A DNA stretch of 64,000 bases from an uncultured Prevotellaceae bacterium (GTDB lineage: Bacteria > Bacteroidota > Bacteroidia > Bacteroidales > Bacteroidaceae). Numbering within the stretch: position 1 is the stretch's first letter; every line of letters begins with the position of its first letter. The position numbers and the translations under genes were made by a program. The notes below the pieces were generated by a model. The model was not told where the DNA came from, made no database searches, and saw only the letters and a program-made list of their open reading frames with translations. The stretch spans positions 2,466 through 66,465 of the forward strand of contig CALCEL010000027.1 in the NCBI GenBank assembly GCA_937900485.1. The letters are read 5' to 3'. This document shows, piece after piece, positions 2 to 55,823 of the stretch.

Positions 2-1090
2 GCTGAGAAGGCGGGTCTTAAGCTTTACCTTGGGTCTTATCCTATCACTCCAGCTACAGATGTGTTACATGAGTTGTCAAAGCACAAGTCGTTAGGAGTA
101 ACCACAGTGCAGTGTGAGGATGAGATAGCAGGTTGTGCTTCGTCAGTAGGTGCCGCTTTCGCAGGTGCTCTTGCTGTGACTTCAACATCTGGTCCTGGTA
201 TCTGTCTTAAATCTGAGGCTATGAACCTCGCAGTGATTATGGAGCTTCCGCTTGTCGTTCTTGATGTACAGCGTGGAGGTCCTGCCACGGGTCTGCCGAC
301 GAAGTCAGAGCAGACAGACCTTCTTCAGGCCTTGTTTGGACGTAACGGAGAGAGTCCAATGCCAGTCATTGCCGCTACAAGTCCTACAGACTGTTTCGAC
401 GCGGCGTTTGCGGCTTCAAAGATGGCGCTTGAGCACATGACTCCGGTCATACTCATGACAGACGCTTACATCGCAAACGGTTCAGCAGCGTTCAAATTGC
501 CTAACCTTGCTGAATATCCAGAGATAAATCCTCCTTATGTGCCAGAGGAGTTGAAAGGCACATGGACTCCATACATGCGTGCTGAGAATGGTACACGTTA
601 CTGGGCAGTACCTGGTCGTGAGGGCTTCCAGCATATCTTGGGTGGATTGGAAAAAGACAACAAGACGGGAGCCATCTCAACAGATCCTGAGAATCATGAC
701 CTGATGACACGTCTGCGCCAGGCAAAGATTGACAAGATTCAGGTTCCGGACCTTGAGGTACTTGGTGACGCTGATGATGCTGAACTTCTCATAGTAGGAT
801 TTGGTGGAACATACGGTCACCTTCATGCAGCGATGGATGAGATGCGCTCCAAGGGAAAGAAAGTGGCTCTTGCTCACTTCAAGTATATCAACCCGCTGCC
901 AGCAAACACGTCAGATGTGCTCAAGAAGTACAAGAAGGTTGTTGTTGCTGAGCAGAACATGGGACAGCTTGCCGGATGGCTTCGTATGAAAGTTGACGGT
1001 TTCGTGCCTTATCAGTTCAATCAGGTTAAGGGACAGCCGTTTGTGGTATCAGAGCTTGTTGAGGCATTCGAGGAAATCATTAACAAATAA
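2..1090 (+). CDS. korA: 2-oxoglutarate/2-oxoacid:ferredoxin oxidoreductase alpha subunit; the 5' end lies upstream of the window
   Basis: The frame is open from position 2 (AEKAGLKLYLGSYPITPATDVLHEL...) to the stop at 1090. KorA-like motifs are present (GSYPITPA, CEDEIAG, TSGPG). The TPP-binding beta subunit follows 14 nt downstream. Confidence 0.85.
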   Translation, partial: AEKAGLKLYLGSYPITPATDVLHELSKHKSLGVTTVQCEDEIAGCASSVGAAFAGALAVTSTSGPGICLKSEAMNLAVIMELPLVVLDVQRGGPATGLPTKSEQTDLLQALFGRNGESPMPVIAATSPTDCFDAAFAASKMALEHMTPVILMTDAYIANGSAAFKLPNLAEYPEINPPYVPEELKGTWTPYMRAENGTRYWAVPGREGFQHILGGLEKDNKTGAISTDPENHDLMTRLRQAKIDKIQVPDLEVLGDADDAELLIVGFGGTYGHLHAAMDEMRSKGKKVALAHFKYINPLPANTSDVLKKYKKVVVAEQNMGQLAGWLRMKVDGFVPYQFNQVKGQPFVVSELVEAFEEIINK

Positions 1091-1104
1091 AAAGGACATT
1101 AATT

Positions 1105-2109
1105 ATGGCATATACAGCTCAAGAATTTAAGAAGGGACAGCCACGTTGGTGTCCTGGATGTGGAGATCATTTTTTCCTTGCCTCTTTGCACAAGGCTATG
1201 GCGGAGATTGGCGTTGCTCCTTGGAACACTGCGGTGATTTCCGGTATTGGTTGCTCATCACGTCTTCCACACTATATGGCGACGTATGGTATGAACACGA
1301 TTCATGGTCGTGCCGCTGCCATCGCCACAGGATGTAAGGTTACTAACCCTGACCTTGCTGTTTGGCAGGTGAGTGGTGACGGAGACGGACTGGCGATTGG
1401 TGGTAATCACTTCATCCATGCCAACAGAAGAAATATCAATCTCAACATGATACTTCTCAACAACCGTATTTACGGACTCACTAAAGGACAGTATTCACCT
1501 ACTTCCCCACGTGGATTTGTCAGTAAGTCATCGCCTTATGGTACTGTTGAGGATCCGTTCCGTCCAGCTGAGTTGTGCTTCGGAGCGCGCGGACATTTCT
1601 TTGCTCGCGCCGTGGCCACAGACGCAGCCGGCACAGTGGATATTCTCAAGGCGGCATACAATCATAAGGGAGCTGCCGTTTGTGAGATCTTACAGAACTG
1701 TGTGATTTTCAATAACGGTACTCATGATGCTGTTTACTCAAAAGAGGAGCGCGCTAAGAACGCTATCTACTGTAAACATGGCGAGCCATTGTTGTTTGGT
1801 GAGAACAACGAGTACGGATTGATGCAGGAAGGTTTCGGACTTAAGATTGTCAAGATAGGTGAGAACGGTGTGACAGAGAAAGATATTCTTGTTCATGACG
1901 CTCACTGTGAGGACAACACCCTTCAACTGAAGTTGGCCCTCATGGGTAACGGTGACGGTTTCCCTGTTGCTCTCGGTGTCATCCGTGACGTTGACGCTCC
2001 AACTTACGATGACAGTGTGACAGCCCAGATAGAGGAAGTTAAGTCAATGAAGAAGTATCACAATTTCTCAGAGCTTCTTGAGACTAATGATATTTGGGAA
2101 GTCAAGTAA
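1105..2109 (+). CDS. korB: 2-oxoglutarate/2-oxoacid:ferredoxin oxidoreductase beta subunit (TPP-binding)
   Basis: 334 aa. N-terminal CPGCGDH motif and a GDGD...N TPP motif (VSGDGDGLAIGGNH). Tightly linked to korA. Confidence 0.85.
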   Translation: MAYTAQEFKKGQPRWCPGCGDHFFLASLHKAMAEIGVAPWNTAVISGIGCSSRLPHYMATYGMNTIHGRAAAIATGCKVTNPDLAVWQVSGDGDGLAIGGNHFIHANRRNINLNMILLNNRIYGLTKGQYSPTSPRGFVSKSSPYGTVEDPFRPAELCFGARGHFFARAVATDAAGTVDILKAAYNHKGAAVCEILQNCVIFNNGTHDAVYSKEERAKNAIYCKHGEPLLFGENNEYGLMQEGFGLKIVKIGENGVTEKDILVHDAHCEDNTLQLKLALMGNGDGFPVALGVIRDVDAPTYDDSVTAQIEEVKSMKKYHNFSELLETNDIWEVK

Positions 2110-2145
2110 TAGTCTTAAATCATAATAGACAATAACAAAAACCTA

Positions 2146-2182
2146 CGAGTGTCACAGCCAACGCTGTGGCACTCGTTTTTTT
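2146..2182 (+). terminator. Rho-independent terminator after korB
   Basis: cgagtgtcacagc / gctgtggcactcg forms a 13-bp stem (one G-T pair) with a short loop and is followed by tttttttg. Confidence 0.8.
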
Positions 2183-2231
2183 GTTTAGACCAATATAAAA
2201 ACATTGTAGACGAATAAAATACCTCAATAGT

Positions 2232-2263
2232 TTTGCGTGTTTTGAAAATATACACTATATTTG
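2232..2263 (+). promoter_or_regulatory. Candidate Bacteroidetes sigma-A promoter for the GH115 gene
   Basis: TTTG at 2232-2235, a 20-nt gap, then TAtaTTTG at 2256-2263. This fits the Bacteroides -33 TTTG / -7 TAnnTTTG consensus. It lies about 130 nt upstream of the ATG at 2395. Confidence 0.45.
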
Positions 2264-2394
2264 CAGAGGTTAATTTTTAACTTTCGTTTTCAAAAGAATT
2301 CAGGTTAATTTATTGTGGGGACTTGCCGTTGTGAAACGTCGAGTCCATTTTTTTTCTAATACAAATCAACAGATAACATAAACTCGTATACTTT

Positions 2395-4629
2395 ATGTGT
2401 AATCGTAAAACCATACTGATATTATTTATATTTCTTTCTCAGATATGCGTGGCTCAGAAGTTTAGGATAAGTCATGGACAGTCTGTAAATATTTACGTCA
2501 AGAAAACTGAGAGTCCTGTGGTACACACTGCGATGGAGATGGTGAGGGCGGACTTAGTCAAGGCGTTAGACGCTGAGATGACTCAGTGTGATGATGTGAA
2601 AGATGCCGATGTGGTATGCTCTTACGATACGACATTGTCACGAGAGTCCTTTGAGTTATGTGTGAGACGGGGCCGACTATACGTCAAGGCGTCCGACGCT
2701 CACGGCATGGCATATGGATTATTAGAGTTATCACGACTGGCAGGTGTGAGTCCATGGGAGTGGTGGGCAGACTGTCAAGTCCGTAAGATCAAGTCACTGT
2801 CCCTGCGTGACGGTTACAGGCGGACAGAGAGTCCCGCTGTGGCCTACCGCGGAATCTTCATCAACGATGAGGACTGGGGTATGATACCTTGGTCGACCAG
2901 ACGAGAGCCAGGTGCGTGGACCATAAGGCAAGGACGCATAAAAGGAGCCGTGGGACCCGAGACCACGGAGAAGATATTCCAGTTGCTTCTCCGTCTCAGA
3001 GCCAATTACTATTGGCCTCCTATGCACGAGTGTACCCAACCGTTCTTCCTGACAGAAGGCAACAGAGAGGTAGCTGCCAAATACGGTATATACATTGGCG
3101 GAAGTCATTGTGAGCCTATGGCTTGTTCTGCCGCTGCGGAGTGGGGCTTGCGAGGAACGGGCGACTATAATTATGTGAGCAATGAGGTTGGAGTGCGTAA
3201 GTTCTGGCAGGAACGACTGGATGAGGTCAAGAATCAGGAGATACTATATACGATAGGAATGCGAGGTGTGCACGACGGAGCCATGCAAGGAGTGAAGACC
3301 ATGGACGAGAAAGTGCGAACACTTCAGAAAGTCATCAATGACCAGAGAGAGATGTTCGAGAACACCAAGCCCGGCATGGCTGACGGCAAACAGCTGTTCG
3401 TGCCATACAAGGAAGTGCTTGACATATATAAGAACGGTCTTCATGTCCCGGAAGACGTCACACTCATGTGGACCGATGACAACTACGGATATATCAGACA
3501 TTATCCTGACTCGACAGAAAGAGCGAGGAAAGGTGGAAACGGACTGTACTATCATGTTAGTTACTGGGGTGCGCCACAAGACTATTTATGGCTTGGCTCT
3601 TTCTCGCCGAGACTGATGTACCATCAGATGAGAGAAGCCTACAGACGAGGTGTACAGCAGGTGTGGGTGTTGAATGTGGGTGACATCAAACCGGCGGAGT
3701 TCCTTATTGAGGAGTGGATGAGTCTCGCCTGGGACGGATTCACTGACAAGAAAGACGAGGTGGAAGACATGATGCGCTCCTTTTACGCCCGTGAGTTTGG
3801 AGACTGCAATGCCGACAACATAGTCAGGATGATGAATGAGTGGTATGCGCTTGCTTTCGAGCGACGTCCTGAGTTCATGGCCAACACACGTGTCTATGAG
3901 AGTGACAGACAGTGGTGGGCTAAGCATCGTACCATACCAGGATGGAACAGTGAGGATGTGCGCCGACGTGTCGAGGCATACCAGAGATTGTCGGATGAGG
4001 CGGAGAAGATAGACGCCCGTATACCATCCGACCGTAAGTTCGCTTATTATCAGCTTGTGAAGTACCCTGTTCAAGCCGCTGCCCAGATGAATTTCAAGTT
4101 CCTTTGTCCTGAGCGTAGCTCCGAGTCCTACGACTCTATCGTGGTGCTGACAGAATTGTATAATAAAGGATATGACGGAAAGTGCAAATGGCAGGGCATG
4201 ATGGATATGTCACCGAGAAATTTACCTGTTTTCGATAAGGTGGACACGTTACTCACTTATCCTGCTCCTACAGAGAAATTGTTGTCAGTCATGTCGAGAT
4301 GTAAGACGACAGACAATGGTGACCTGTTGTTCAAACTGCCTAAGGACGCAGTGGTCAATGACAGTGTAACCCTTGAGATAAGTGCATTGCCTACGTTTCC
4401 CGTGTATGGTGACAGGATGGCCATGAGCATATCGTCAGACGGGTGCGCAGGAGTCGTAGCGGAGTTCCAGAGTAAGTATCATGGTGAGGAATGGAAACAG
4501 AACGTGTTGAGAAACAGAGCCGTGAGGCGTGTGAAGATACCTACCCGAGGTGATAAAGTCTTATTGAGTATGCTTGACGAAGGCATCACGGTCACTGACA
4601 TTAAAATAAAAATTCGTGATGGTAAATGA
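2395..4629 (+). CDS. Glycoside hydrolase family 115-like (alpha-glucuronidase-type), secreted
   Basis: 744 aa with a signal peptide. Blocks typical of GH115: GIFINDEDWG, LLLRLRANYYWPPMH, GGSHCEPM, YTIGMRGVHDG, WTDDNYGYIR, GLYYHVSYWGAPQDYLWL, NVGDIKPAE. Confidence 0.7.
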   Translation: MCNRKTILILFIFLSQICVAQKFRISHGQSVNIYVKKTESPVVHTAMEMVRADLVKALDAEMTQCDDVKDADVVCSYDTTLSRESFELCVRRGRLYVKASDAHGMAYGLLELSRLAGVSPWEWWADCQVRKIKSLSLRDGYRRTESPAVAYRGIFINDEDWGMIPWSTRREPGAWTIRQGRIKGAVGPETTEKIFQLLLRLRANYYWPPMHECTQPFFLTEGNREVAAKYGIYIGGSHCEPMACSAAAEWGLRGTGDYNYVSNEVGVRKFWQERLDEVKNQEILYTIGMRGVHDGAMQGVKTMDEKVRTLQKVINDQREMFENTKPGMADGKQLFVPYKEVLDIYKNGLHVPEDVTLMWTDDNYGYIRHYPDSTERARKGGNGLYYHVSYWGAPQDYLWLGSFSPRLMYHQMREAYRRGVQQVWVLNVGDIKPAEFLIEEWMSLAWDGFTDKKDEVEDMMRSFYAREFGDCNADNIVRMMNEWYALAFERRPEFMANTRVYESDRQWWAKHRTIPGWNSEDVRRRVEAYQRLSDEAEKIDARIPSDRKFAYYQLVKYPVQAAAQMNFKFLCPERSSESYDSIVVLTELYNKGYDGKCKWQGMMDMSPRNLPVFDKVDTLLTYPAPTEKLLSVMSRCKTTDNGDLLFKLPKDAVVNDSVTLEISALPTFPVYGDRMAMSISSDGCAGVVAEFQSKYHGEEWKQNVLRNRAVRRVKIPTRGDKVLLSMLDEGITVTDIKIKIRDGK

Positions 4630-4646
4630 CCATCACGAATTTTTTT
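4609..4646. terminator. Bidirectional terminator hairpin shared by the convergent GH115 and GH16 genes
   Basis: aaaattcgtgatgg / ccatcacgaatttt stem flanked by an A-run and a T-run. It overlaps the GH115 stop codon (4627-4629). Confidence 0.7.
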
Positions 4647-4650
4647 ATGC

Positions 4651-5520
4651 TCACTTCCTCTGCCAAACCCTAACGTAGTCAATCTCGTATCTCATCGGAA
4701 AAGCTTTGTCGTCAATCCTGCCTCCGTTATCACCACCAAGAGCGAGGTTTAACAAGATATACTGTGGAAAGTTGAAAGGACTGACATTGTCACCTATACT
4801 TCCGTTGACGGTTGACTTGACCGGAGTCTCGTTGAGTAGATCATCGTCCAAATATATACGTATAGCGTCCTTGTCCCAGTCCAGCCTCCATACGTGGAAA
4901 CTGCTGTGCCAAAAACTGTCTTTGTCCAGGAAATGCTGATAAGGAGTCTTGACGGAATTCCATACGGCATTCCATCTCTTGTCGTTGCCCCATGCCACGT
5001 TGGCGAGTACATGACTCACATTGTCAATACGATAATACTCCATGACGTCTATTTCTCCACACGATGGCCACTCACGTTGGTTGCCGAGAGTCCATATCGC
5101 TGGCCATGCGCCATAAGCCACAGGTATCCTTGCCTTGACCTCCATACGTCCGTAAGTGAAGCTGAAGCGGTCCTTTGTCGTCACGCAAGCCGAAGTATAT
5201 CTGATGTGCTTACGTCTTTTGTTCCATGCGTCGCTGTTCTCATCATACCAGGGGTTGAGTCGTAATGTGTCCAGCTTGTCACACTCAATCACCAGCATAC
5301 CATTTTGTCTGTATGCGTTCTCCTTCTGATACCATTGGTCCTCATGGTTTCTGACAAAGCCCTCCTCGTAGGTCCATTTGTTCTCGTCCAGCACTCCGTT
5401 ACCGTCAAACTCGTCCGACCACACCAGCTGGTATTCTTGTGCGTTCGTGCTAAGATGACAAGCCAACGATGCGAATAGCAATAAGTCTTTCATTTTTACC
5501 TTCATATCTTTCTTTTCCAT
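4651..5520 (-). CDS. Glycoside hydrolase family 16 (beta-glucanase/laminarinase-like), secreted
   Basis: GH16 catalytic motif EIDVMEY (ExDxxE) and a beta-jelly-roll-like sequence. Signal peptide MKVKMKDLLLFASLACHLSTNAQ. The start is placed at the ATG at 5520; 5505 or 5493 are alternatives. The longer ORF-track start at 5613 is unlikely. Confidence 0.8.
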   Translation of the reverse strand: MEKKDMKVKMKDLLLFASLACHLSTNAQEYQLVWSDEFDGNGVLDENKWTYEEGFVRNHEDQWYQKENAYRQNGMLVIECDKLDTLRLNPWYDENSDAWNKRRKHIRYTSACVTTKDRFSFTYGRMEVKARIPVAYGAWPAIWTLGNQREWPSCGEIDVMEYYRIDNVSHVLANVAWGNDKRWNAVWNSVKTPYQHFLDKDSFWHSSFHVWRLDWDKDAIRIYLDDDLLNETPVKSTVNGSIGDNVSPFNFPQYILLNLALGGDNGGRIDDKAFPMRYEIDYVRVWQRK

Positions 5521-5806
5521 TGTTATCCAGATGTCATGTCCGTATGAAAATCCTTGTCTCCCGATGAGAGACAGGGACTGCTCGCGAAGTTCATAAAAAA
5601 CAATTAAAAGCACAAGAAATTACGGATAAACTACATTCCTCACGCTTACCAACGAGTGTACTCTCAATCGTATGCGTGAAATGGATGATAACAGACCTCA
5701 TAATTATAACAAGCATGTGTGGCGACAGTCCCCATTCGTAGTGACGGATATTGTGGATTGAAACGATGAGAGATTAAAAAAGAAATAAAACATCTCTTTC
5801 GTAAGA

Positions 5807-6138
5807 CTAACCAGATTTCCTATCCGCACCCCCAATTTTTGCTGTCCGAAACTCCTCTTTTTCCGTTGACACAAGGCAACGAGAAAATGACTTCCGGAAT
5901 TTTCCCGTGTCTTATTCGGCTTTTGAAAATCTCAGGTTAGGATGATGAAAAGTTCAGGTTAGGATTTTTAAATTATCAGACCTGCGTATAGACTACATCC
6001 TAACCTGAGATTTTAAAAAAAGAGACATAAGGTTTTTAAATGCTTTGTTTTAACATTATCAATAAGTTAACCTATTTTTGATAAAAAATGGGCATAGGAA
6101 ATTTCGTCACACCATAAATTGTCCATTATTTCACCATG
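5807..6138 (+). repeat. Copy 1 of the ~330-bp structured non-coding repeat family
   Basis: Colinear with 21563-21894, 32853-33182 and 53861-54189. Contains AGGTTAGGA half-sites in the order > > < < and a subterminal inverted repeat, ATTTCCTAT (5815-5823) with ATAGGAAAT (6094-6102). No conserved ORF. Confidence 0.9.
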
Positions 6139-6205
6139 TGTTTACTGACTTATAACTGCTGCCTTATCCTGATTTTGGTTGACTCGGGTTGATTACATCC
6201 ATTAG

Positions 6206-6325
6206 CAGTTTGTCGAAGATATTTATGTATATAAGGATGCCAAAGGTCTATACATCGAGAAATATGGCGAGCGGGCAAAGAATGCTGTTTTAGTCATCCA
6301 TACCATTCCAGACAATGCTTTGTGA
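6206..6325 (+). pseudogene. Orphan C-terminal gene fragment (TonB-dependent receptor plug / BlaR-TonB C-terminal-like motif)
   Basis: The short frame QFVEDIYVYKDAKGLYIEKYGERAKNAVLVIHTIPDNAL* resembles the '...VLKDA..A.YG.RA.NGVI.I.T' motif. It follows an in-frame stop and has no start codon or upstream body. The surrounding 6139-6890 holds only short broken ORFs. Confidence 0.3.
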
Positions 6326-6868
6326 TGCCTATGTGTCATTCGCCTATCAAAGAAAGGGTAACTATCAGAATATGGATGAGAACAAGGATATGGTTGCGCT
6401 AACCAAGACGTTTATGAATGGTAACCTCAGCGTGAAGATCGAGGATGACGACCTGTTCTGCGGAAGATGTGACGGTTTCTGCTCAACTTCCAGGGCATGA
6501 CTATCGACAATTTCAACTCGTACGACAGCCGTTGCTGTTCTATAACCGTCAGGTATAAGTTCCATCAGTCAAAGTCGAAGTACAAGAGCCAGAGTACAGT
6601 TGACAGAGAGATTGACCGTTTATGACGTTTTTTGTGTGGATGTCGACATGCTCAGCCAGTCATGTCATGATGAGTCTATCAACGCATATCTCCATTAGTG
6701 GATACTGACACCTTTGTGGTCTATACTGAGTCGTTAAACGACTACACCTATTATATACATGTTGCGTATGTATGGAAAAAGGCTGATAAAAACTATTAAT
6801 CAAGAAGAGTTAGATAGAGGCGACGACGACAAGTAATCAGGATAAAAATTCCAAAAATGATTATTTAT

Positions 6869-21562: not shown

Positions 21563-21894
21563 TTAACCGGATTTCCTATTCACACCCATAATTTTTGTTG
21601 TTCGAAACTCCTCTTTTTTCGTTGACACTTGGCAACGAAAAAATGCTTTTAAGTATTTTGTCATAGCTTATTCTTCGGTTGAAAATCTTAGGTTAGGGCG
21701 TTGAAAAGTTCAGGTTAGGATTTTTAAATTCTCAGACCTGTATGAAGACTATATCCTAACCTGAGAATTTTAAAAAAGAGACCTAAGGTTTTTAAATGCC
21801 TTGTTTTAAGATTATCAGCAAGTTATCTTAAATTTATACAAAAATAAGCATAGGAAATTTGGTGACGATGTAAATTGTCCATTATTCCACCATG
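21563..21894 (+). repeat. Copy 2 of the ~330-bp structured repeat family
   Basis: Colinear with the other three copies, same orientation. The B1 half-site cttaggt (21687-21693) is exactly complementary to B4 acctaag (21781-21787). Confidence 0.9.
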
Positions 21895-22120
21895 TTAAGA
21901 GGCGGCGAGAGTCGTTCTCCATGGGATGGTCGGACATCTCGGCTTGCGCGAGCTGATAAGCGAGTAACACTACGATACGTTCTTGGCTTAGCTGTACCGC
22001 ACTCTGCCTGACTCCGCGCATTCTGTCATCAACGACAGGGTATCGAGAAATTTCACTTGTAAAACCTTAACCAGACTCGTCGATTTGATATTTTTTTAAT
22101 CGTAGTTTGTCATATATAGT

Positions 22121-32006: not shown

Positions 32007-32567
32007 ATGGATGACGTAAAAGTTTTCATTAAAGAGGCTGAGGACTCCATGGAGATGGCTGCATTGCATCTTGAGGAGGCTCTTAGTCGTATCCGCGCCG
32101 GACGCGCTAACGTGCATATCCTTGATGAGGTGCGTGTGGAGTCTTACGGACAGCATGTCCCACTGAGTAACGTTGCCAGTCTTAATACACCTGATGCTCG
32201 TACCATCACTATCAAGCCATGGGAAAAGCAGATGCTGAAGGTTATCGAGAAGGCTATCATCGATTCTCCTGTCGGTATCATGCCGGAGAATAACGGTGAG
32301 ATAATACGTCTTGGTATACCTGCCCTCACAGAGGAGAGACGTAAGGATTTGACAAAACAGTGTTCTAAGGAGGCTGAGACAGCTAAGGTCAGTGTTCGTA
32401 ACGCTCGCCGTGAGGCTATCGACAAACTCAAGAAGTCTGTTAAGAATGGTGTGCCTGAGGATGTAGAGAAGGACTCTGAGGACACAGTGCAGAAGATTCA
32501 CGACAAATATGTCAAGAAGATTGAGTCTATGCTCGAGGTCAAGAACAAGGAGATCATGACTGTGTGA
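32007..32567 (+). CDS. frr: Ribosome recycling factor
   Basis: 186 aa from the ATG at 32007. Contains L...RIRAGRAN..ILD.V.V..YG, PLTEERRK.L.K and similar blocks. Confidence 0.9.
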   Translation: MDDVKVFIKEAEDSMEMAALHLEEALSRIRAGRANVHILDEVRVESYGQHVPLSNVASLNTPDARTITIKPWEKQMLKVIEKAIIDSPVGIMPENNGEIIRLGIPALTEERRKDLTKQCSKEAETAKVSVRNARREAIDKLKKSVKNGVPEDVEKDSEDTVQKIHDKYVKKIESMLEVKNKEIMTV

Positions 32568-32590
32568 TTTCTTTGTCGTGATATAAAAAA

Positions 32591-32627
32591 GGCGGAACAG
32601 GATATTCCTGCTCCGCTTTTTTTGTTG
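32591..32627 (+). terminator. Rho-independent terminator after frr
   Basis: ggcggaacagg-atatt-cctgctccgc stem (one mismatch) followed by ttttttt. Confidence 0.75.
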
Positions 32628-32852
32628 TGAGACGTCACATCGGGTTTTCAGACGTTGACGAACCGCAAAGCGAAAGCATTCGATAGGCTACTGACTGCAG
32701 TGCCTATATATGAAATGAAGTCTACATTCATACTTCTACATTTCTGTGCGTCTTGAATGTCAGAGTCGAGTCAATAGAAATCAGTGTTAACCATTACCTT
32801 GCGTGAGTCCTTTTTGTACCGGTTTGAGATATGAAAAACTCGTAAACACACA

Positions 32853-33182
32853 CTTACCAGATTTCCTATCCGCCCCCCAATTTTTACTGTCCGAAACTCC
32901 CCTTTTCCCGTTGACACGTGTCAGCGATAAAATGACTTCTGAAATTTTCCCGTGTCTTATTTGGCGTCTGAAAATCTCAGGTTAGGACGTTGAAAAGTTC
33001 AGGTTAGGATTTTTAAACTCTCAGACCTGCGTATTGACTATATCCTAACTTGAGAGTTTCAAAAAAGACACCTGAGATTTTTAAAAGTCTTGTTTTAAGA
33101 ATATCAGCAAGTTAACCGGATTTTAGTAAAAACTAGTCATAAGAAAATTGGTTACACTCCAAATTGTCCATAATTCCACCAG
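32853..33182 (+). repeat. Copy 3 of the ~330-bp structured repeat family
   Basis: Colinear with the other copies. B1 (32971-32982, aaaatctcaggt) is a perfect complement of B4 (33070-33081). B2 (32998-33010) pairs with B3 (33042-33054) with one G-T. The palindrome tgacacgtgtca lies at 32912-32923. Confidence 0.9.
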
Positions 33183-33626
33183 TTTATTTATCTGTTTCTC
33201 ATGCTTTTTGATGTCATGGCCAAGTTGTAGCAACATCCATTAGTAGACTCATGACGGATGAGAGTCCCAGGAGTGGCAATAGTTGTTACCTTGGTGTTTG
33301 CAAATTCTTTTATATCAACTACTTGTGTGTTAAATGACAGGAAGTGATGACGTGGATTCTAAGGAGAATTAAAATGATGAAGATTTTACTTTTATATACC
33401 TCAAATACGTGTTATGATATATATATATCACTTGAATGCCACCTTTTTCCGTGATATGTCAGATTAATTCGAAAGAAATGTAGTATCTTTGCTAAGACTT
33501 TGATGTCTATTGTCTCACGAACCCTTTAGTGTTACTTATCATACTTTTCAGATATACATCTCAGTCAATTATCAATTATGTAAATTATACATGTGAACTC
33601 ATGTGTCAGATTCATTAAAAACAATT

Positions 33627-35459
33627 ATGAGAGAGTTCTTCAATGTGATGGGCAAATACTTTGCCAATTACAAAGGTTATATAGCGGCAGCTTTTGGAGT
33701 TAATGTCCTTTCCGCTTTCTTGAATATATTCTCTTTCGCAGCTATAATGCCGATACTGAATATATTATTCAAAGTAGACAATAACGTGTATTCTTTCATT
33801 CCGTGGGGAGATGGAGACTTCAAGGATACGGCGATGAATAATATATATTATTATTCTCAGGTTCTTATCGAGCAGTTTGGTCCGGCGACGACCATGCTCT
33901 TACTCGGTATTGTGCTTTCTGTCCTGACATTATTCAAGACGGGAACATACTTCGGAGGTTCGGCGTTGCTGATGCCTTTGCGTACGGGTATAGTCAGAGA
34001 TATACGAAATGACATTTATCGTAAGATTCTGAGTCTGCCGCTCTCGTTCTTTAATGAGGAGCGTAAGGGAGACATACTCACACGTGTGAGCACTGACGTG
34101 AATGAGATAGACTCGAGCATCACCAGTTCTCTGGACACGCTCATCAAGAATCCGATCCTGATTTTAGTGTATGTCGGCACCCTTGTCTACATCAGTTGGC
34201 AGTTGACGTTGTTCACTCTTCTTGTTGTGCCTGTTCTGGCGGTGGCGATTGGTAAGATAGGAAAGTCGCTGAAAGCAAAGAGCATAATGCAGCAGACCAA
34301 GCTGTCCGACAGTATAAGTCAGATTGAGGAAACTCTCGGAGGCCTTAGAATCATCAAGGCGTTCATTGCTGAGCAGAAGATGATGGACAGGTTTGAGAAG
34401 GTGAACAACGAGTACAGGAACATATCCAACAGAGTGGCTATACGTCAGTCTGCCGCTCATCCTGTGAGTGAGTTCCTGGGAACTGTCATGATAGTGATTG
34501 TCCTTTGGTTTGGCGGTTACCTGATTTTCTCAGGCCGTTCAAGTATAGACGCTGGAATGTTTATCTATTATCTGGTTATTTTGTACACGACCCTGCAGCC
34601 GTTGAAAGACATCTCTAAGGCGGGATATTCCGTTCAGAAAGGTCTTGCTTCCATGGAGCGTGTGAATATGATTTTGTCCGCAAAGAACAATATCACGGAG
34701 GTCAGCAATCCAAGTAAGGTGGACGGGTTGAAGGATAAGATAGAGTTGCGTGACGTTTGTTTCTGTTATGAGAACTCAGAGCGTAATGTCCTAAGCGGGA
34801 TAAACATAACAGTGCATAAGGGTGAGACAGTAGCTCTTGTCGGTCAGTCAGGTTCGGGTAAGAGCACGCTTGTTGACCTCATACCTCGTTATCATGATGT
34901 CACAAGCGGTGAGCTGCTGATAGACGGAGTGAATGTCCGTGACTTGTCAATCAGATCGCTGCGTTCAATAATAGGCAATGTTAATCAAGAGGCCATATTG
35001 TTTAACGACACTATATACAATAACATCGCTTTTGGTGTTGAGAATGCTACGATGGAGCAGGTTGAGGCTGCGGCTCGAATAGCTAACGCGCATGACTTCA
35101 TCGTTGAGATGGAGAACGGTTATCAGACAAATGTCGGTGACCGCGGATGCCGACTCTCAGGAGGTCAGAGACAGCGTATCAGTATTGCGCGCGCTATACT
35201 TAAGAATCCGCCGATCCTCATCCTCGATGAGGCGACGAGCGCACTCGACACGGAGAGTGAGCGTCTCGTTCAAGATGCTTTGGGTAAGCTGATGAGCTCA
35301 CGCACCACAATAGCCATTGCTCATCGTCTGTCAACTATTAAACATGCGGACGTGATATATGTGCTTCACGACGGTAATATTGTGGAGAAAGGCACGCACG
35401 ATGAGCTGATTGCTATGGGTGGATACTATAAGCGCCTGCATGACATGCAGACGCTATGA
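33627..35459 (+). CDS. ABC transporter, fused permease/ATPase (MsbA-like lipid/drug exporter)
   Basis: Six-TM exporter domain, then Walker A GQSGSGKST, signature LSGGQRQR and Walker B ILILDEATSALD. The start is either the GTG at 33603 or the ATG at 33627. A TAtcTTTG box lies at 33484-33491. Confidence 0.85.
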   Translation: MREFFNVMGKYFANYKGYIAAAFGVNVLSAFLNIFSFAAIMPILNILFKVDNNVYSFIPWGDGDFKDTAMNNIYYYSQVLIEQFGPATTMLLLGIVLSVLTLFKTGTYFGGSALLMPLRTGIVRDIRNDIYRKILSLPLSFFNEERKGDILTRVSTDVNEIDSSITSSLDTLIKNPILILVYVGTLVYISWQLTLFTLLVVPVLAVAIGKIGKSLKAKSIMQQTKLSDSISQIEETLGGLRIIKAFIAEQKMMDRFEKVNNEYRNISNRVAIRQSAAHPVSEFLGTVMIVIVLWFGGYLIFSGRSSIDAGMFIYYLVILYTTLQPLKDISKAGYSVQKGLASMERVNMILSAKNNITEVSNPSKVDGLKDKIELRDVCFCYENSERNVLSGINITVHKGETVALVGQSGSGKSTLVDLIPRYHDVTSGELLIDGVNVRDLSIRSLRSIIGNVNQEAILFNDTIYNNIAFGVENATMEQVEAAARIANAHDFIVEMENGYQTNVGDRGCRLSGGQRQRISIARAILKNPPILILDEATSALDTESERLVQDALGKLMSSRTTIAIAHRLSTIKHADVIYVLHDGNIVEKGTHDELIAMGGYYKRLHDMQTL

Positions 35460-48911: not shown

Positions 48912-50471
48912 ATGTTAACGAAAATCTTCTCAGCCACGTTACGTGGTTTGGACGCTTTGCCTGTTATTATTGAGGCTGACTCATATTCCACATCATCTCC
49001 TCAAGTGAGGTTTTCTATTGTGGGGTTGCCCGACAATGCTGTAAAGGAGAGTCAGGAACGTATCCTGTCCTCTTTGCGTTTTTATGGCTATAAACATCCA
49101 GTGAAAAATGTCGTTGTCAATTTAGCCCCAGCAGATATCCGGAAAGAAGGCTCAGGCTTCGATTTGCCTATAGCCATATCTCTCCTGTCCGCTTATGACA
49201 TATTGAATTTTCATGATTTGGACCACTGCATGTTTATTGGCGAGTTAGGTCTTGACGGTAGCATTTTACCAGTCAAGGGCGCCCTACCTATATCCATCAA
49301 GGCCCGTGAGTTAGGCTTTGACAGTCTTTTTGTTCCGAAAGACAATGTCAAGGAGGCTGCTGTCGTCAACAAGCTGAAAGTGTATGGTGTCTCAAACCTT
49401 CAGGAGGTTATCTATCATCTTATGGGGCAAGTGGTGTTGGAACCGGAATTCGTTGACACACGCAAAGAGTTTTACGAGAGTCAATGTGATTATGACATCG
49501 ATTTTGAGGACGTTAAAGGTCAGGAAAATGTGAAACGTGCCTTTGAGGTAGCTGCAGCCGGTGGACATAACATTATATTAGTGGGTAGTCCGGGCTGTGG
49601 TAAGTCTATGATGGCTAAGCGCATTCCCACCATCCTTCCTCCATTATCTCTTAGTGAGAGTCTTGAGACCACACAAATACATAGCGTGGCGGGAAGGATG
49701 AAAAAAGACTCGTCGCTGATATCTCAGCGTCCTTTCAGGTCACCTCATCACACGATATCTGTCGTGGCTCTTGTGGGAGGTGGACAGAATCCCCAACCAG
49801 GAGAAGTGAGTCTGGCACATAACGGAGTGTTATTTCTTGATGAGATGCCGGAGCTGAGCCGTAGTGTCCTTGAGGTGTTACGTCAGCCTCTTGAAGATAG
49901 GAAGATAACAATCAGCCGTGTGAAATACAATGTTGAGTATCCCTGTTCCTTTATGTTGGTAGCATCTATGAACCCGTGCCCTTGTGGATATTACGGTGAC
50001 ACTTCTCATCATTGCGTGTGTACTCCTGGACAGATACAGAGATATATGAACAAGATTAGCGGTCCTTTGCTTGACCGTTTCGATATACATTGTGAGATTC
50101 AGGCAGTGCCGTTTGCTCAGCTCTCGCAGATGCAACCGGGAGAGCCAAGTAGAAAGATACGGGAAAGAGTCATCAAGGCGAGACAAATACAGGAGTTGCG
50201 GTTCCGGGAGTTCAAAGGCGTCCATTGTAATGCCCAGATGAACGAACGTATGTTACACAAGTTCGCTGAACCTGATGTCGAGTCACTCTCTATGCTTCGT
50301 ACTGCTATGGATAGACTGAAGCTGTCTGCAAGAGCCTACAGCCGTATATTGAAGGTAGCCAGAACCATCGCTGACTTAGACAGTTCAGAGAACGTCCAGT
50401 CACAGCACATTGCCGAGGCTATTGGTTATCGTAACCTTGATAGAGGTGACTGGGCAGAAAGAGGAATATAA
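48912..50471 (+). CDS. comM: Mg-chelatase-like AAA+ ATPase YifB/ComM
   Basis: 519 aa. Lon-like N-terminal domain, Walker A GSPGCGKSM, Walker B LFLDEMPE, and the Cys cluster CPCGYYGD..H.C.C. Confidence 0.9.
   Translation: MLTKIFSATLRGLDALPVIIEADSYSTSSPQVRFSIVGLPDNAVKESQERILSSLRFYGYKHPVKNVVVNLAPADIRKEGSGFDLPIAISLLSAYDILNFHDLDHCMFIGELGLDGSILPVKGALPISIKARELGFDSLFVPKDNVKEAAVVNKLKVYGVSNLQEVIYHLMGQVVLEPEFVDTRKEFYESQCDYDIDFEDVKGQENVKRAFEVAAAGGHNIILVGSPGCGKSMMAKRIPTILPPLSLSESLETTQIHSVAGRMKKDSSLISQRPFRSPHHTISVVALVGGGQNPQPGEVSLAHNGVLFLDEMPELSRSVLEVLRQPLEDRKITISRVKYNVEYPCSFMLVASMNPCPCGYYGDTSHHCVCTPGQIQRYMNKISGPLLDRFDIHCEIQAVPFAQLSQMQPGEPSRKIRERVIKARQIQELRFREFKGVHCNAQMNERMLHKFAEPDVESLSMLRTAMDRLKLSARAYSRILKVARTIADLDSSENVQSQHIAEAIGYRNLDRGDWAERGI
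50080..50335 (+). repeat. Left copy of the 256-bp perfect direct repeat (inside intact comM)
   Basis: Identical, position by position, to 52933-53188 (offset 2853). Similarity continues in diverged form to the stop codons (50471 and 53324). Confidence 0.95.
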
Positions 50472-50513
50472 ATTTGGTCGTTTAATATAAAATTGTCACT
50501 TTTGCTGCCTATA

Positions 50514-51557
50514 ATGAAAACAAGAAGATTTATCATTTTAAGTATACTTAGTATAACTGTATCATTGCAAACATTAATTGCACAAAGCAACAGTAATAGC
50601 GAATACTATGACAAAGCGTACTCTGAAATAACGGATATGCTGGAAGGCAGAACTGCCTTGTCAATAAGTCGCGCTGTCTTTGTGGCAGAATGGGCTTACC
50701 TTGACGGCAATCTGGACTACGAGAAAGATTTCTGTGAGCCTATCAAGAAAGGAGCGGACTATATGATGCGTATGATTGCTGTCAATCATTGGGAGAAATA
50801 CAAGACAGCGAAACAAATAGCCCTCTGCAACTTTTTCTTTTACCCTTGCTCTGGGAATGGCCAGAAACCTTATGAATACGATTTCAGCAATGAATTCCCC
50901 AATGATGACTGGCACTACCAACTTGTTTCCATAACTATCAAAACACACAAAGGGCAATGCCACTCATTGCCTTGGGCATTCAAGCTGTATGCAGAGGAAC
51001 TTGGTGCAAATGTCTCGCTGACACATGCTCCATGCCATTGTTTCATTATATATAAAGATGAAGACAACTTATTCCCTGAAGACTGGATTAATGTAGAGGT
51101 AACAGCACACCAGTACCAACCGACTTGGGGAATAAAGGAACACTTTGCCATTTCGGATTCGGCAATAGCAGCAGGAACATATCTGACTCCTATTACTGAT
51201 GTCCAAACAGTGGCTTGTCAGTTGGCAGACTTAGCTTTAGGCTATTACCATAAGTATAAGCGTTATGATGATTTTACACTCAAATGCGCCGAAGTATCTT
51301 TGAAATACTATCCCATGAATCCTAATGCAATCATTACCAAGGGGAAATCTCTTGATGCACTTCTACAGCAACATCTTGAACAAAACGGACATCTTCGGGA
51401 TGCATATACAGATGCTATAGACTTACAATCGAGACAATGCATGCAGGACTTAAAAGCAACCCACTGGACTCAAGAGACGGAAGAACTGCGGAACAAATGG
51501 AAGCAAACTCCAGAAGACTTTGAGAATATCAGAAAGAATATACAAATCATAAAATAA
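50514..51557 (+). CDS. Secreted transglutaminase-like (Cys-His-acid) fold protein with TPR-like C-terminal region
   Basis: Signal peptide MKTRRFIILSILSITVSLQTLIAQ. Contains KGQCHSLPWAF ... PCHCFIIY ... WINVEVT in the order expected for a transglutaminase-like core, and a helical-repeat C-terminus. AT-rich relative to its neighbours. Confidence 0.45.
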   Translation: MKTRRFIILSILSITVSLQTLIAQSNSNSEYYDKAYSEITDMLEGRTALSISRAVFVAEWAYLDGNLDYEKDFCEPIKKGADYMMRMIAVNHWEKYKTAKQIALCNFFFYPCSGNGQKPYEYDFSNEFPNDDWHYQLVSITIKTHKGQCHSLPWAFKLYAEELGANVSLTHAPCHCFIIYKDEDNLFPEDWINVEVTAHQYQPTWGIKEHFAISDSAIAAGTYLTPITDVQTVACQLADLALGYYHKYKRYDDFTLKCAEVSLKYYPMNPNAIITKGKSLDALLQQHLEQNGHLRDAYTDAIDLQSRQCMQDLKATHWTQETEELRNKWKQTPEDFENIRKNIQIIK

Positions 51558-51563
51558 AGTATT

Positions 51564-52286
51564 ATGAAAAGATTTAAAAAAGCATTACTGTCAGTCGCTA
51601 TTTCATTAGCAGCAATTAACGCAAACGCATTTCCTTGGATTTCACCGTATGCATATTGTTTAGGGAACCCCGTGGCTGCAATTGATCCAGATGGTAGAAA
51701 AGTAGTATTTGTTAACGGATACCTTGGTTTTGGCTCACCAGAAGGTGGAGAGACCTATTGGAATGGGCATAACTCTTCATTTGTGAAAGGAGCACAATCT
51801 ACATTTAATGATTATGCAACACCATATTTTACTAACTACGATTATAATTATATGAAAAGTGCAAGTATGGTTAGAGAGTCTTTAGGTTATCAATATGCAA
51901 AAGATAATTACAATGCTCTTATCGAGGGTATGAAGCCTGGTGTAGATAAATTTAATTTCGTATCGCATAGTATGGGAGGAGCTTTCTCAGAGGGAATGAT
52001 GAAATATATGTCTGAACAAGGCTGGGAAACCGATAATGCTTTATTCCTAAACGCATGGGAACCATCACGAATTAACACTAAAGTAGAAAAGAATAGGATA
52101 GATGCGACATGTGTCAATGACCCTGTACAATTTCTAAGTAAACCTTTGTTTGGAGATCCAGACATTCCATCTTCTGATGAAAGAATAAGGATAAATAGTA
52201 ATGAGTCAATGATGTATATCCATAGAGATTTAATAGATGGTAATAACGATTTATGGAAACTGATTAATAGTTTCTTATCAAAATGA
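51564..52286 (+). CDS. Orphan Rhs/polymorphic-toxin C-terminal cassette with a lipase-like alpha/beta-hydrolase toxin domain
   Basis: SPYAYCLGNPVAAIDPDGRK (51642-51701) resembles the Rhs-core terminal PxxxxDPxG(R/L) junction. Downstream are VVFVNGYLGFG....YWNG and the nucleophile elbow VSHSMGG (GxSxG), as in secreted lipases. A signal-peptide-like segment MKRFKKALLSVAISLAAINANA precedes it. No YD/Rhs repeats lie upstream. Confidence 0.6.
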   Translation: MKRFKKALLSVAISLAAINANAFPWISPYAYCLGNPVAAIDPDGRKVVFVNGYLGFGSPEGGETYWNGHNSSFVKGAQSTFNDYATPYFTNYDYNYMKSASMVRESLGYQYAKDNYNALIEGMKPGVDKFNFVSHSMGGAFSEGMMKYMSEQGWETDNALFLNAWEPSRINTKVEKNRIDATCVNDPVQFLSKPLFGDPDIPSSDERIRINSNESMMYIHRDLIDGNNDLWKLINSFLSK

Positions 52287-52669
52287 GAATCTTCATCAAC
52301 ATTATTGCAATAATTGCATTTATTATACAATCATTTTCTTTTGTATTAAATGTACTAATTCAAAAGAAACCTGAAAGCACAATAGATTCATTGTATAGCT
52401 ATTTTGTTGTTATAGCTTATCTTTGCTCGGTATTGGTTATTGTTCTGTTTGTCTTATTATATAACTTTGATTTCAAGTTTCTGAAAACAAAAATTCTAAA
52501 TTGTTTCTTCTGTATAGTTGGTTTTCTCGGAACATATATTCATATTTGGCAGTTGTTTATACATAATGACTTCGTATTAACATCATTTGTTTTACTAATT
52601 TTTGATATCTATATCTTTTGTAAAATACTGAGTAGTTTTTTTAATATTAATGACTTGCATATCCAGTGA
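52283..52669 (+). CDS. Small 4-TM membrane protein, candidate cognate immunity protein
   Basis: 128 aa with four hydrophobic helices, very AT-rich. The ATG overlaps the toxin stop (ATGA at 52283-52286), implying translational coupling. Confidence 0.5.
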   Translation: MRIFINIIAIIAFIIQSFSFVLNVLIQKKPESTIDSLYSYFVVIAYLCSVLVIVLFVLLYNFDFKFLKTKILNCFFCIVGFLGTYIHIWQLFIHNDFVLTSFVLLIFDIYIFCKILSSFFNINDLHIQ

Positions 52670-52932
52670 GTCATAGTAGTTCTAACTGCAGTTCTTCCAC
52701 GATGAGTATACAAATAATTATTAATTTTTTGGAATTTACTCTATCTTTTATATACGTTATGCTTATATGGCCAGTATATGAAGGCGAAGATTGTTTATGG
52801 GATTGCTTAATTTTTCAGCTATTAAAACGAATTGCGAAGTAACATAAACGAAATTATGGAGAAAGTAAGCTAGAATGATTCATGCAAATAGTATCTGTCA
52901 GGAATTCTCGGCGTATAAAACCGCAGCACGTA

Positions 52933-53188
52933 TCGATATACATTGTGAGATTCAGGCAGTGCCGTTTGCTCAGCTCTCGCAGATGCAACCGGGAGAGCCA
53001 AGTAGAAAGATACGGGAAAGAGTCATCAAGGCGAGACAAATACAGGAGTTGCGGTTCCGGGAGTTCAAAGGCGTCCATTGTAATGCCCAGATGAACGAAC
53101 GTATGTTACACAAGTTCGCTGAACCTGATGTCGAGTCACTCTCTATGCTTCGTACTGCTATGGATAGACTGAAGCTGTCTGCAAGAGC
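52933..53188 (+). repeat. Right copy of the 256-bp perfect direct repeat
   Basis: Identical to 50080-50335. Confidence 0.95.
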
Positions 53189-53324
53189 TTACAGCAGAAT
53201 ACTTAAAGTGTCGAGGACCATTGCAGACTTGGACGGCTCAGAAAAAATCCTGTCCCGACATATTGCTGAAGCAATTGGGTATAGGAGCCTTGACCGTGGC
53301 GATTGGGCAGAGAGAGGTGTGTAA
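52933..53324 (+). pseudogene. comM: Displaced 3' fragment of comM (last ~130 codons, alternative tail)
   Basis: It encodes IDIHCEIQAVPFAQL...AEAIGYRSLDRGDWAERGV*, with no N-terminal AAA+ part. The ORF-track start at 52875 is a fortuitous upstream extension. Confidence 0.9.
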
Positions 53325-53498
53325 TAAATAAAGGCAAATAACTCTTAATATGAGAAATAATACAGAATCGTTTGCCTTTGTGGAAGAACTGTCTGAAGCT
53401 AATGAAGAAGAGAACGTAATGCAAATCATAGTGAACAGTAAGAAACTATTGGCGATTCAGTTCTAAACGAATGACTCTTGATTTAAGCCGCAGAAACA

Positions 53499-53861
53499 CT
53501 ATCTATGTATTATAGATTCTTTGAATTTATCTTCATATTCTTTTAAAAGTTCGCTAAGTGGAATTCCTAATCGAGTGTTTAAACGTAAGAATTTTCTATT
53601 TGTTACAGAGCGTGCATTCTTAAATAGTCTTGCAGTATCAGACTGATTAAAGCCGAGTGCCGTAAGATATATTAGTATTAAATCTTTGTTGTCTATGTCT
53701 TTGTAGTGTGAAAGAATATTTTTTCTGAGATTTGGATATAGTTTATCTACAGCAATAAACACATCTTCCCACATATCTTGTGTTAAGATGGCTTTTTGAT
53801 TATATTCAATTGTTTTTAGTTCTGTGATTACAGATGATACATCCTTTGCGCTTTCAGCTAC
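53499..53861 (-). pseudogene. 5'-truncated gene for an HTH-type regulator-like protein, cut off at the repeat boundary
   Basis: The frame is open from the repeat edge (VAESAKDVSSVITELKTIEYNQKAILTQD-MWEDV...). The upstream in-frame stop (53862-53864) lies inside the first nucleotides of repeat copy 4. The C-terminus LIYLTALGFNQSDTARLFKNARSVTNRKFLRLNTRLGI looks like a helix-turn-helix. An internal ATG at 53774 gives the 91-aa ORF. Confidence 0.5.
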
Positions 53862-54189: not shown

Positions 54190-54260
54190 TTTTTTTGAGT
54201 GTTTTTTCCGTCAAATAATCACTTGTCAGTCATATTTCACGTTATTGTCTCTCATTGAGA

Positions 54261-54308
54261 CAAAAAAGAGATCCATTTCATGTCAGCATCGATGCTGTGA
54301 AATGGATC
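54261..54308 (-). terminator. Rho-independent terminator of sufE
   Basis: On the minus strand the long hairpin gatccatttca...tgaaatggatc (inner palindrome cagcatcgatgctg) is followed by tctctttttt. Confidence 0.75.
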
Positions 54309-54359
54309 ATCTTGTCTTTATGTAATAAATCTCTCGTCTCAGTATAGACGCTATACGTC

Positions 54360-54785: not shown

Positions 54786-54817
54786 GTCTTGTTGTCTTTA
54801 TTTACGCGTCTGTGGAC

Positions 54818-55819: not shown

Positions 55820-55823
55820 ACTC

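Follow-up and report, generated by a model that had tools for sequence, protein, structure and literature searches.

The stretch of DNA analyzed here, 64,000 nucleotides from contig CALCEL010000027.1 of an uncultured Prevotellaceae bacterium (hereafter the window), carries four copies of a noncoding repeat element of approximately 332 bp, all of them intergenic and on the + strand. Copy 1 (w1; 5808–6139, all limits as refined here; nhmmer score, 376 bits) lies between a GH16 gene (−) and a decayed outer-membrane-protein gene followed by dxs (+). Copy 2 (w2; 21564–21896), the most diverged, is located between genes for a DUF6057 protein (+) and an SDR protein (−), copy 3 (w3; 32854–33185) between frr (+) and an ABC exporter gene (+), and copy 4 (w4; 53862–54192) between a comM 3′ fragment with a hypothetical open reading frame (ORF) and sufE (−). 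An initial annotation of the window had described four collinear copies of ~330 nt at these places on the + strand, with roughly four fifths of their positions shared, and both statements were borne out. Alignment of the four copies and their 50-nt flanks with MAFFT reveals collinear similarity that starts and stops abruptly, and a repeat search of the window returns a single family of four members with gap-free identities to copy 1 of 78–82%. This repeat family is previously undescribed and confined to one species-level lineage of uncultured bioreactor Bacteroidales. Its constraint in place and the strain breakpoints at its right terminus, both described below, are new facts beyond the view of the initial annotation.

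Four copies in one window had been taken to imply a genome-wide family, and this was confirmed. JGI and other metagenome collections were scanned with one core pattern, AGGTTAGG-N12-16-AGGTTAGGA-N25-50-TCCTAAC, and then with an nhmmer profile; the core pattern itself matches the window four times, compared to 0.00 matches expected from 100 shuffles. Among the metagenome matches listed were at least 12 further full-length copies on 11 other contigs, which belong to one metagenome bin, a numerically contiguous block (around contigs 3027–3089) in the whole-genome shotgun set FLNY01. The total set comprises 16 paralogous copies and 3 orthologs from at least five independent assemblies. All paralog pairs are 76–87% identical (at least 12% diverged). 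The density is four copies per 64 kb in the window, with about one additional copy in ~100 kb of FLNY flanks, so that a figure of tens of copies per genome is an estimate and not a measurement.

Searches for the family elsewhere define its narrow range. No member was found in 185,579 GTDB species representatives (one genome per species), where the only matches were unrelated AGGTTAGGA arrays; like the metagenome scan, this search used the one core pattern, which diverged relatives could escape. Plasmids and phages searched by blastn and viral contigs searched with three patterns contained no member either, the two further end-block patterns matching only unrelated sequence in the viral contigs, and a plasmid or phage origin was rejected on these grounds. 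The loci of relatives with 84–96% identical RRF proteins have no copy. RRF and AroA from the window place the lineage in Bacteroidales, with the nearest named proteins coming from metagenome-assembled genomes (MAGs) labeled Bacteroidaceae or Prevotellaceae. One sister strain aside, the closest AroA is only ~70% identical, which marks the lineage as isolated; exact-protein look-ups gave no match for SDR and Dus and matched only the window's own strain for YchF and SufE. That strain is represented independently by the bioreactor-metagenome contig k127_656286 in ENA (ERZ922529), which is 100% identical to window positions 53062–64000 and contains an identical copy 4 (L010 and L152).

The anatomy of the element was derived from an alignment of the 16 paralogs, in which mean column identity is 83%. 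The element has a G+C content of 32–38%, compared to ~45% for the window, and A/T tracts are abundant. Its left end begins with ACCAGATTTCCTAT..., usually preceded by T[T/A]; T[T/A]AC stands directly before the left end in ~10 of 15 copies and could belong to the element itself. The left end exists in two sequence versions, 5 of the 16 copies carrying ...TCACCTTACCATTTCGCAC. It is followed by a near-invariant first block, TGTCCGAAACTCC-CTTTT, by a hairpin proposed by RNAalifold (TTTTTCCGTTG-loop-CAACGAAAAA; 5858–5887 on the + strand of copy 1, alignment columns 60–89), and by the blocks AAAATGACTTC, ATTTTCC, and CTTATTCGGCGTCTG, in that order. The center is occupied by an array of 22-bp units (5924–6042 on the + strand of copy 1), three direct (U1–U3) and two inverted (U4 and U5). 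According to the repeat search, direct units are spaced by 22 nt and the inverted arms, 24 nt in length, are 96% complementary; the motifs that are invariant in the array across the 16 copies are two direct occurrences of CAGGTTAGGA and one inverted TCCTAACCTGAG. The motif repeats are phased at 22 bp.

To the right of the array, an A-run and a conserved GTTAAC lead to a first hypervariable patch of ~9 nt, then to a conserved AAAAAYAGGCATAGGAAATTTGGT and a second hypervariable patch of 8 nt. AAAAAYAGGCATAGGAAATTTGGT is the partner of the left-end inverted repeat, whose left arm occupies 5810–5828 on the + strand of copy 1 and whose right arm (6089–6107; repeat search) ends ~30 nt inside the right terminus. 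The arms span 14–19 nt with 79–84% complementarity (19 nt and 79% in copy 1); over all 16 copies, no more than 84% of cells are paired, and five copies have the different left-end sequence. The element closes with a right-terminal block, AAATTGTCCATTATTCCACC(A/T)(T/G)(G/T)T in the consensus and AAATTGTCCATTATTCCACC followed by ATGT in copy 1 (6119–6139, + strand), identified from the alignment, the listing of termini, and the strain junctions.

Copies are always intergenic, their neighbors are ordinary genes, and most lie within 70–300 bp of housekeeping genes on both sides; convergent gene pairs flank w2, w4, and the copies at L088 and L095. A strict + orientation, as initially reported, holds within the window but not for the family, since the 16 copies are oriented 8:8 relative to both neighboring genes and local GC skew, the latter serving as no more than a stand-in for the direction of replication. 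That all four copies in the window point the same way is chance (1 in 8), and a replication-linked co-orientation was rejected. Neighbors of all copies were scanned with Pfam, and the other window ORFs were scanned with Pfam or matched to annotated sister-strain genes; they are housekeeping genes, except for three ORFs without a Pfam match at 50493–52669. Consistent with the earlier reading of the copies' surroundings, no transposase, integrase, reverse transcriptase, or nuclease gene was found among the copy neighbors or the window ORFs covered in this way.

A sister strain with ~96% nucleotide identity, whose contigs were found by exact-protein and near-homolog look-ups, allows the element to be compared at orthologous positions. 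The neutral yardstick is the divergence of the two strains at four-fold degenerate sites, which is 9.8%. The w1 ortholog (L150 476–811) is 92% identical, the w2 orthologs (L148 17068–17402 and L149 11473–11807) 86%, and the w3 ortholog (L137 6846–7181) 90%, and at all three sites a copy and its positional ortholog are closer to one another than to any other member. Because the element is shared at each of the three sites and orthologs are mutually closest, the family must predate the strain split and has been immobile since then at these sites. Empty sites, which the initial annotation had proposed to look for in orthologous regions, were not encountered: the three comparable sites (w1, w2, and w3) are all occupied in the sister strain. 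The same annotation had held that its view would fail for a family confined to the four loci and devoid of presence/absence polymorphism; polymorphism is indeed lacking at the three comparable sites, but the family extends beyond the four loci.

Column classes differ in their rates of change between orthologs. When the classes are defined from 13 paralogs, with the three tested copies excluded, paralog-invariant columns differ between orthologs at 3.8% of positions (18/474) and columns with at least two deviants at 19% (70/368; Fisher p = 5.5e-13), so the heterogeneity is not a product of ascertainment. Variable columns change at ~2 times the neutral rate. As the invariant class, at 3.8%, falls below the neutral value of ~10%, about half of the element appears to be under purifying selection in place. 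States found in other paralogs account for 70 of the 104 ortholog differences, which suggests ectopic gene conversion; by our estimate, the conversion rate needed for this excess could not alone bring the invariant class down to 3.8%.

The two strains part ways at one end of the element. All three alignments run collinearly through the left flank and the element and then lose homology at the right terminus or no more than ~13 nt from it. At w1, homology ends at 6139, where ...CACCATGT is followed by GTTTAC in the window and by ATAAAT in the sister strain (offset, 0 nt). It resumes inside an outer-membrane β-barrel gene (blastn, 88%), of which the sister strain has an intact version (L148 1–2028, at least 675 amino acids; Pfam OMP_b-brl_3). 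The window retains a frameshifted, TonB-receptor-like relic of this gene upstream of dxs (6327–6622, + strand; amino acids 573–675 by tblastn) and has lost the first 572 codons to the right of copy 1; the relic accounts for the 780-bp ORF-free stretch at this position.

At w2, homology ends at 21896, with ...CCACCATGTT followed by AAGAGG in the window and by CTTTAC in the sister strain (offset, 0 nt). The right terminus is abutted by the relic of the 3′ end of a polyvalent-protein (LPD/MuF) gene (21899–22027, + strand), a 134-nt segment with 82% blastn identity to positions 6383–6516 of L032, corresponding by tblastn to amino acids 1853–1895 of the 1921-residue L032 protein. At L032, a paralogous FLNY locus, this gene is intact (828–6593), encodes MuF_C, LPD1, LPD5, and methyltransferase domains, and is separated from the element by a 500-nt spacer. 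Polyvalent proteins of such domain composition are typical of conjugative elements and phages. The right flank of w2 in the sister strain weakly resembles the start of the L032 spacer (z = 5.8). Taken together, the arrangement in the window looks like a ~6-kb deletion beginning exactly at the terminus.

At w3, homology ends at ~33189–33198 (offset, 9–13 nt) and resumes after ~217 bp in the window and 2455 bp in the sister strain (L137). The ~2.45 kb absent from the window (L137 7185–9639) contain degraded ORFs, with no recombinase seen among them and no significant Pfam match. This segment comprises a split ORF (61 + 278 amino acids) whose N-terminal part is apparently lost, as judged by eye from the translation, and a 168-amino-acid membrane-like ORF. 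At w1 and w3, local homology is regained farther to the right, so that the right-end differences at these two sites are local insertions or deletions and not inversions. Ectopic homologous recombination was rejected as the cause of the breaks, since the elements show no switch point, the differences between orthologs being evenly distributed over their length. Two exact breakpoints and one near breakpoint at the same end would arise from random breaks in spacers with a probability that we estimate at roughly 1e-3 or less.

Based on these data, a tentative model, plausible to us if somewhat short of probable, is that the repeat is an old, nonautonomous mobile or recombination DNA element with asymmetric ends. 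An enzyme encoded elsewhere would have multiplied the element at a time before the split between the two sampled strains. The conserved blocks of the element, and the helically phased 22-bp CAGGTTAGGA units (two direct, one inverted) in particular, would be putative sites for a sequence-specific DNA-binding protein, which might be a transposase, a recombinase, or a host factor. The same protein may still cut or join DNA at the right terminus, ...TTCCACC[A/T]TGT, with adjacent deletions or replacements as the outcome and the element itself being kept. This model rests on the conservation of primary sequence without compensation, the phased array, the sharp and unlike termini, and the one-sided rearrangements. 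That the palindromic arms are conserved as sequence and not as pairs fits recognition by a protein.

Several observations weigh against the proposed mobile element. No target-site duplications flank any of the 15 copies for which both ends are available. Tested as a terminal repeat of the kind found in miniature inverted-repeat transposable elements (MITEs), the inverted repeat is a weak one: its right arm stops short of the terminus, and five copies have another sequence at the left end. Insertion polymorphism is lacking, with all three testable sites occupied in both strains, and so are young copies, none of the paralogs being near-identical and the closest pair reaching 87%. Neither the scanned ORFs of the ~64-kb window nor the genes flanking each copy elsewhere include a transposase or recombinase. 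The right-terminus effect comes from three sites in one strain pair, and the derived state at each breakpoint is partly deduced from gene integrity. The main difficulty, though, is constraint: invariant columns evolve about five times slower than variable columns and at ~0.4 times the neutral rate, a slowness that would be surprising in dead copies of a transposon and speaks for a function in place. It is this feature that keeps alive the two rivals of an RNA family and a host DNA module, considered below. A classical MITE is not supported by the sequence data, given the missing duplications, the weak subterminal repeat, and the lack of near-identical copies, empty sites, and a nearby transposase.

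The foremost alternative, possible but rather unlikely in our view, is a family of paralogous noncoding RNA genes read from the + strand, in which the conserved blocks would form a protein-binding scaffold, the fast patches (~9 nt at columns 277–286 and 8 nt at columns 314–321) would pair with targets, and the 3′ end would be an insertion/deletion hot spot, as tRNA and tmRNA genes are for islands. Such genes would explain why about half of the columns are constrained in place while the patches vary faster than neutral, and why the asymmetry falls at the presumed 3′ end. A protein product was addressed separately. The initial annotation had inferred a noncoding sequence from indels said to break every frame; the argument was overstated, because the central ~230 columns are nearly free of indels and a + strand ORF of 17 codons (MTSGIFPCLIRRLKISG, with an A-rich leader; columns 89–142, for example 5887–5940 of the window) is open in 15 of 16 paralogs, but its conclusion holds. 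No coding signal was detected in the family. The 17-codon ORF varies equally at the three codon positions (26/28/27), and different stop mutations interrupt it at codon 8 in copy 2 and in that copy's sister-strain ortholog. Lacking a third-position bias, it is probably not translated. Coding on the minus strand was rejected, as its ATG (MDNL...) is not conserved.

Tests for a structured RNA gave little encouragement to the RNA alternative. Folding is better than that of shuffled sequences on the + strand (z = −4.0), which would suit an RNA, and also on the other strand (z = −2.7), as any palindrome-rich DNA would presumably show. RNAalifold proposes hairpins with a covariation term of ~0. Two alternative structures, with U1 paired to U4 or with U1 paired to U5 and U2 to U4, were evaluated on the 16 copies against 500 shuffles each. 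No covariation was found in a test whose power is low, as most stem columns never vary: the paired percentage was 93.2 compared to 93.5 after shuffling, with covariation scores of 0.066 and 0.071 and one pair with double changes against 2.2 expected. Shuffles equaled or exceeded the observed value in 446–497 of 500 cases for the first structure and 281–495 of 500 for the second. Counting against the RNA alternative are the lack of covariation in the paired percentage and covariation score of the two structures (449–497 of 500 shuffles at least as high) and the lack of stacked covarying pairs in an all-against-all column scan. The sole well-populated variable pair (135/210; CG 6, UG 4, CA 4, UA 2) follows the prediction for independence. 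At the hairpin in columns 60–89, changes are one-sided and never compensatory; those on the + strand yield G-U more often than A-C (16 versus 3 cells), which favors an RNA, with the counts deriving from few events only. One C-G to U-A double change between the w3 orthologs points the same way.

Expression signals and family searches were likewise negative. The Bacteroidetes promoter TAnnTTTG is nowhere conserved in the element, the sole near-match being GAAATTTG in 10 of 15 copies; σ70-like sites are at or modestly above shuffle expectation, none at a position conserved between copies; and intrinsic terminators (none found) do not exceed it. Rfam 15, which includes FopS/GibS, the HEARO/IscB RNA, and Bacteroidales motifs, gave no match in the whole window at gathering thresholds, in agreement with the earlier statement that the sequence is unrecognized. 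A permissive scan of copy 1 returned only chance hairpin matches to eukaryotic microRNA and snoRNA models (15–25 bits compared to gathering values of 38–117). ARAGORN detected no tRNA or tmRNA in the window, which disposes of a tRNA- or tmRNA-like gene. A structured RNA gene thus appears unsupported by these tests, since covariation, promoter and terminator, and Rfam match are all lacking. The mobile element and the multicopy structured RNA gene initially offered as alternatives each lack their hallmarks, namely covariation, promoter, and terminator in the case of the RNA and duplications, young copies, and polymorphism at the three comparable sites in that of the transposon.

Multicopy RNA families do exist in this group of bacteria. 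FopS, a multicopy small RNA (sRNA) of Bacteroides, has 14 copies (12–15 copies per genome; PMC11697453). FopS RNAs are short, consisting of a single-stranded seed and a terminator hairpin. Their promoters are canonical, their conservation extends across Bacteroidaceae, and both FopS and GibS have Rfam entries (PMC11697453). The present element resembles FopS and GibS as a paralogous noncoding family in Bacteroidales intergenic regions. In contrast to them, it measures 335 nt, has no promoter or terminator signal and no Rfam match, and occurs in one species-level lineage, and identity with FopS/GibS or another Rfam family was rejected for lack of matches. With four copies per 64 kb it would also be longer and denser than known sRNA families, and the variable DNA beside it shows no integrase.

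A further reading, which we regard as doubtful, would make the element the cis site of an undescribed breakage and rejoining system, be it a site-specific or RNA-guided recombinase or one-ended transposition. Such a system would act at ...TTCCACC(A/T)TGT and repeatedly delete or exchange the DNA on the right, and the copies would be kept by selection acting through the 22-bp CAGGTTAGGA array.

Also doubtful is a host DNA module that was never mobile, a dispersed platform for a nucleoid-associated, regulatory, or replication/recombination protein with a role like that of BIME, ERIC, or BOX sequences, spread by duplication and gene conversion. Conservation at the level of sequence without compensation, purifying selection in place, phased 22-bp motifs, and abundant A/T tracts would all be expected of a protein platform, and the shared states at 70 of 104 ortholog differences are those expected under gene conversion. 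By analogy, unrelated phages carry very similar AGGTTAGGA arrays beside a primase-helicase gene, probably origin iterons, and arrays of this kind act as protein-binding sites. However, sharp, identical boundaries at at least 16 unrelated loci require an insertion mechanism, and a module alone does not explain breakpoints located exactly at one terminus. The absence of the family from sampled relatives at ~80% nucleotide or 84–89% RRF identity, and of the core motif from all GTDB representatives, would be unusual for a housekeeping function.

Descent from an IS200/IS605-type single-strand transposon, as a palindrome-associated nonautonomous element that may include a guide-RNA-like scaffold with the right flank as the guide, seems improbable. 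In favor of this type, target-site duplications and true terminal inverted repeats are missing, the ends are unlike, hairpins are internal, and the flank starts at a sharp right terminus; selection on a functional scaffold could account for the constraint in place. T[T/A]AC before the left end resembles a conserved target or target-adjacent motif (TAM), but could simply be element sequence. The orientation bias with replication expected of this type was not seen, eight copies lying on the G-rich and eight on the C-rich strand, no TnpA or TnpB was seen in the ~64-kb window or beside copies at other loci, and there is neither an Rfam match to transposon-associated RNAs nor structural covariation.

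Least probable of the alternatives, and very much so, are relics of the attachment-site arms or ends of an integrative/conjugative element, with the CAGGTTAGGA units as arm-type recombinase sites and the variable DNA on the right as decayed cargo: such DNA, partly resembling mobile elements, does lie on one side only (the intact L032 LPD/MuF gene, the w2 relic, and the degraded L137 gene) and the order element-spacer-LPD gene recurs at two loci, but most copies have housekeeping genes within 70–300 bp on both sides, the DNA lost at w1 is a chromosomal outer-membrane-protein gene, no integrase was seen, island scars would not number in the tens, and an arm would not stay behind after precise excision. 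An invertible promoter was rejected, as several copies lie between convergent genes, no promoter is conserved, and the inverted repeat is not conserved in five copies.

More generally, the family is of a kind with BOX, ERIC, and MITE-like interspersed repeats, without sharing sequence with any catalogued family tested. BOX of Streptococcus pneumoniae and the enterobacterial ERIC/IRU are interspersed, intergenic, modular repeats of 100–400 bp, in which partly complementary end modules surround short tandem units. They reach tens to hundreds of copies in a narrow lineage and encode no protein; no transposase is clearly linked to them, and how they move is unclear. Both have been catalogued for decades without a mechanism. 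The present element shares these features in a comparison by general description, and it fits the class descriptively: it is multicopy, noncoding, and intergenic, has a modular build with short internal repeats, is restricted to a lineage, and lacks an identified enzyme. It differs in having no sequence similarity to BOX or ERIC and in its unit, which is 22 bp, both direct and inverted, and fixed in number. We know of no description of constraint in place or of one-sided breakpoints for either BOX or ERIC. With MITEs, such as the Correia elements of Neisseria and those of Porphyromonas gingivalis (PMC5771137), it has in common its size class and its dispersal between genes, an A+T content above that of the genome, a noncoding nature, and a partial inverted repeat near the ends; it differs in the absence of target-site duplications, a partner insertion sequence (IS), insertion polymorphism, and young copies, and in a right arm placed 30 nt inside the terminus. 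The retention of an element while the DNA at exactly one end differs between close strains is reminiscent of IS adjacent deletions and of islands at the 3′ ends of tRNA and tmRNA genes, from which the present case differs in that no transposase or integrase accompanies it and the element itself is not an IS and not a tRNA or tmRNA gene.

The family offers two handles, namely selection in place on about half of its positions and strain rearrangements that start at one defined terminus. Should an active enzyme stand behind both, the family would open a way to a new activity of recombination or transposition in Bacteroidales; should they reflect an RNA, the family would be a regulatory one of unusual length and abundance. 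In practical terms, the element breaks metagenome assemblies and marks hot spots of gene loss in a bioreactor species. Contigs that end inside a copy or within a few hundred bases of one are L139 (end at 6937), L138, L148, L150, L032, L088, and L128, and the family evidently fragments short-read metagenome assemblies of its host organism. Two FLNY copies share an additional ~120 nt of left-flank homology (L054 1307–1427 and L086 4191–4315; 83%) that is absent from other copies and stems from a second repeat or from a subfamily variant of greater length.

Matches to AGGTTAGGA in Thiobacillus, Rhodocyclaceae, and IMG/VR contigs were rejected as family members: they are iteron-like arrays located next to primase genes of the VapE type. 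Arrays of AGGTTAGGA(A/T)G, dense and with both direct and inverted units, occur at 6711–6974 of L006 (a Thiobacillus MAG), at 9411–9665 of L001, and in L003, L004, L005, and L008. In two annotated loci, in prophage or viral contigs, the arrays directly adjoin the 3′ side of VapE-like primase/helicase genes, and they are probably phage replication-origin iterons.

Two neighborhoods in the window show further irregularities. In relatives with 84–89% identical RRF (L130 and L134–L136), rsgA directly follows frr, a position taken in the window (32567–33627) by copy 3 and the ABC exporter gene, and the synteny break after frr coincides with the element; a relative with 96% identical RRF has a different synteny after frr and is hence uninformative on empty sites. 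In the comM region (48912–53324), the 3′ end of the gene is duplicated, with repeats at 50076–50375 and 52929–53228 that lie 2853 bp apart and are 96% identical over the first 300 nt and ~86% identical beyond. The three ORFs without a Pfam match (50493–52669) are located between the full comM gene and a 149-amino-acid fragment, and the arrangement looks like a small insertion into comM that came with a replacement for the 3′ end. An assembly break at the repeat is suggested by the independent ENA contig, which begins at 53062, inside the comM duplicate.

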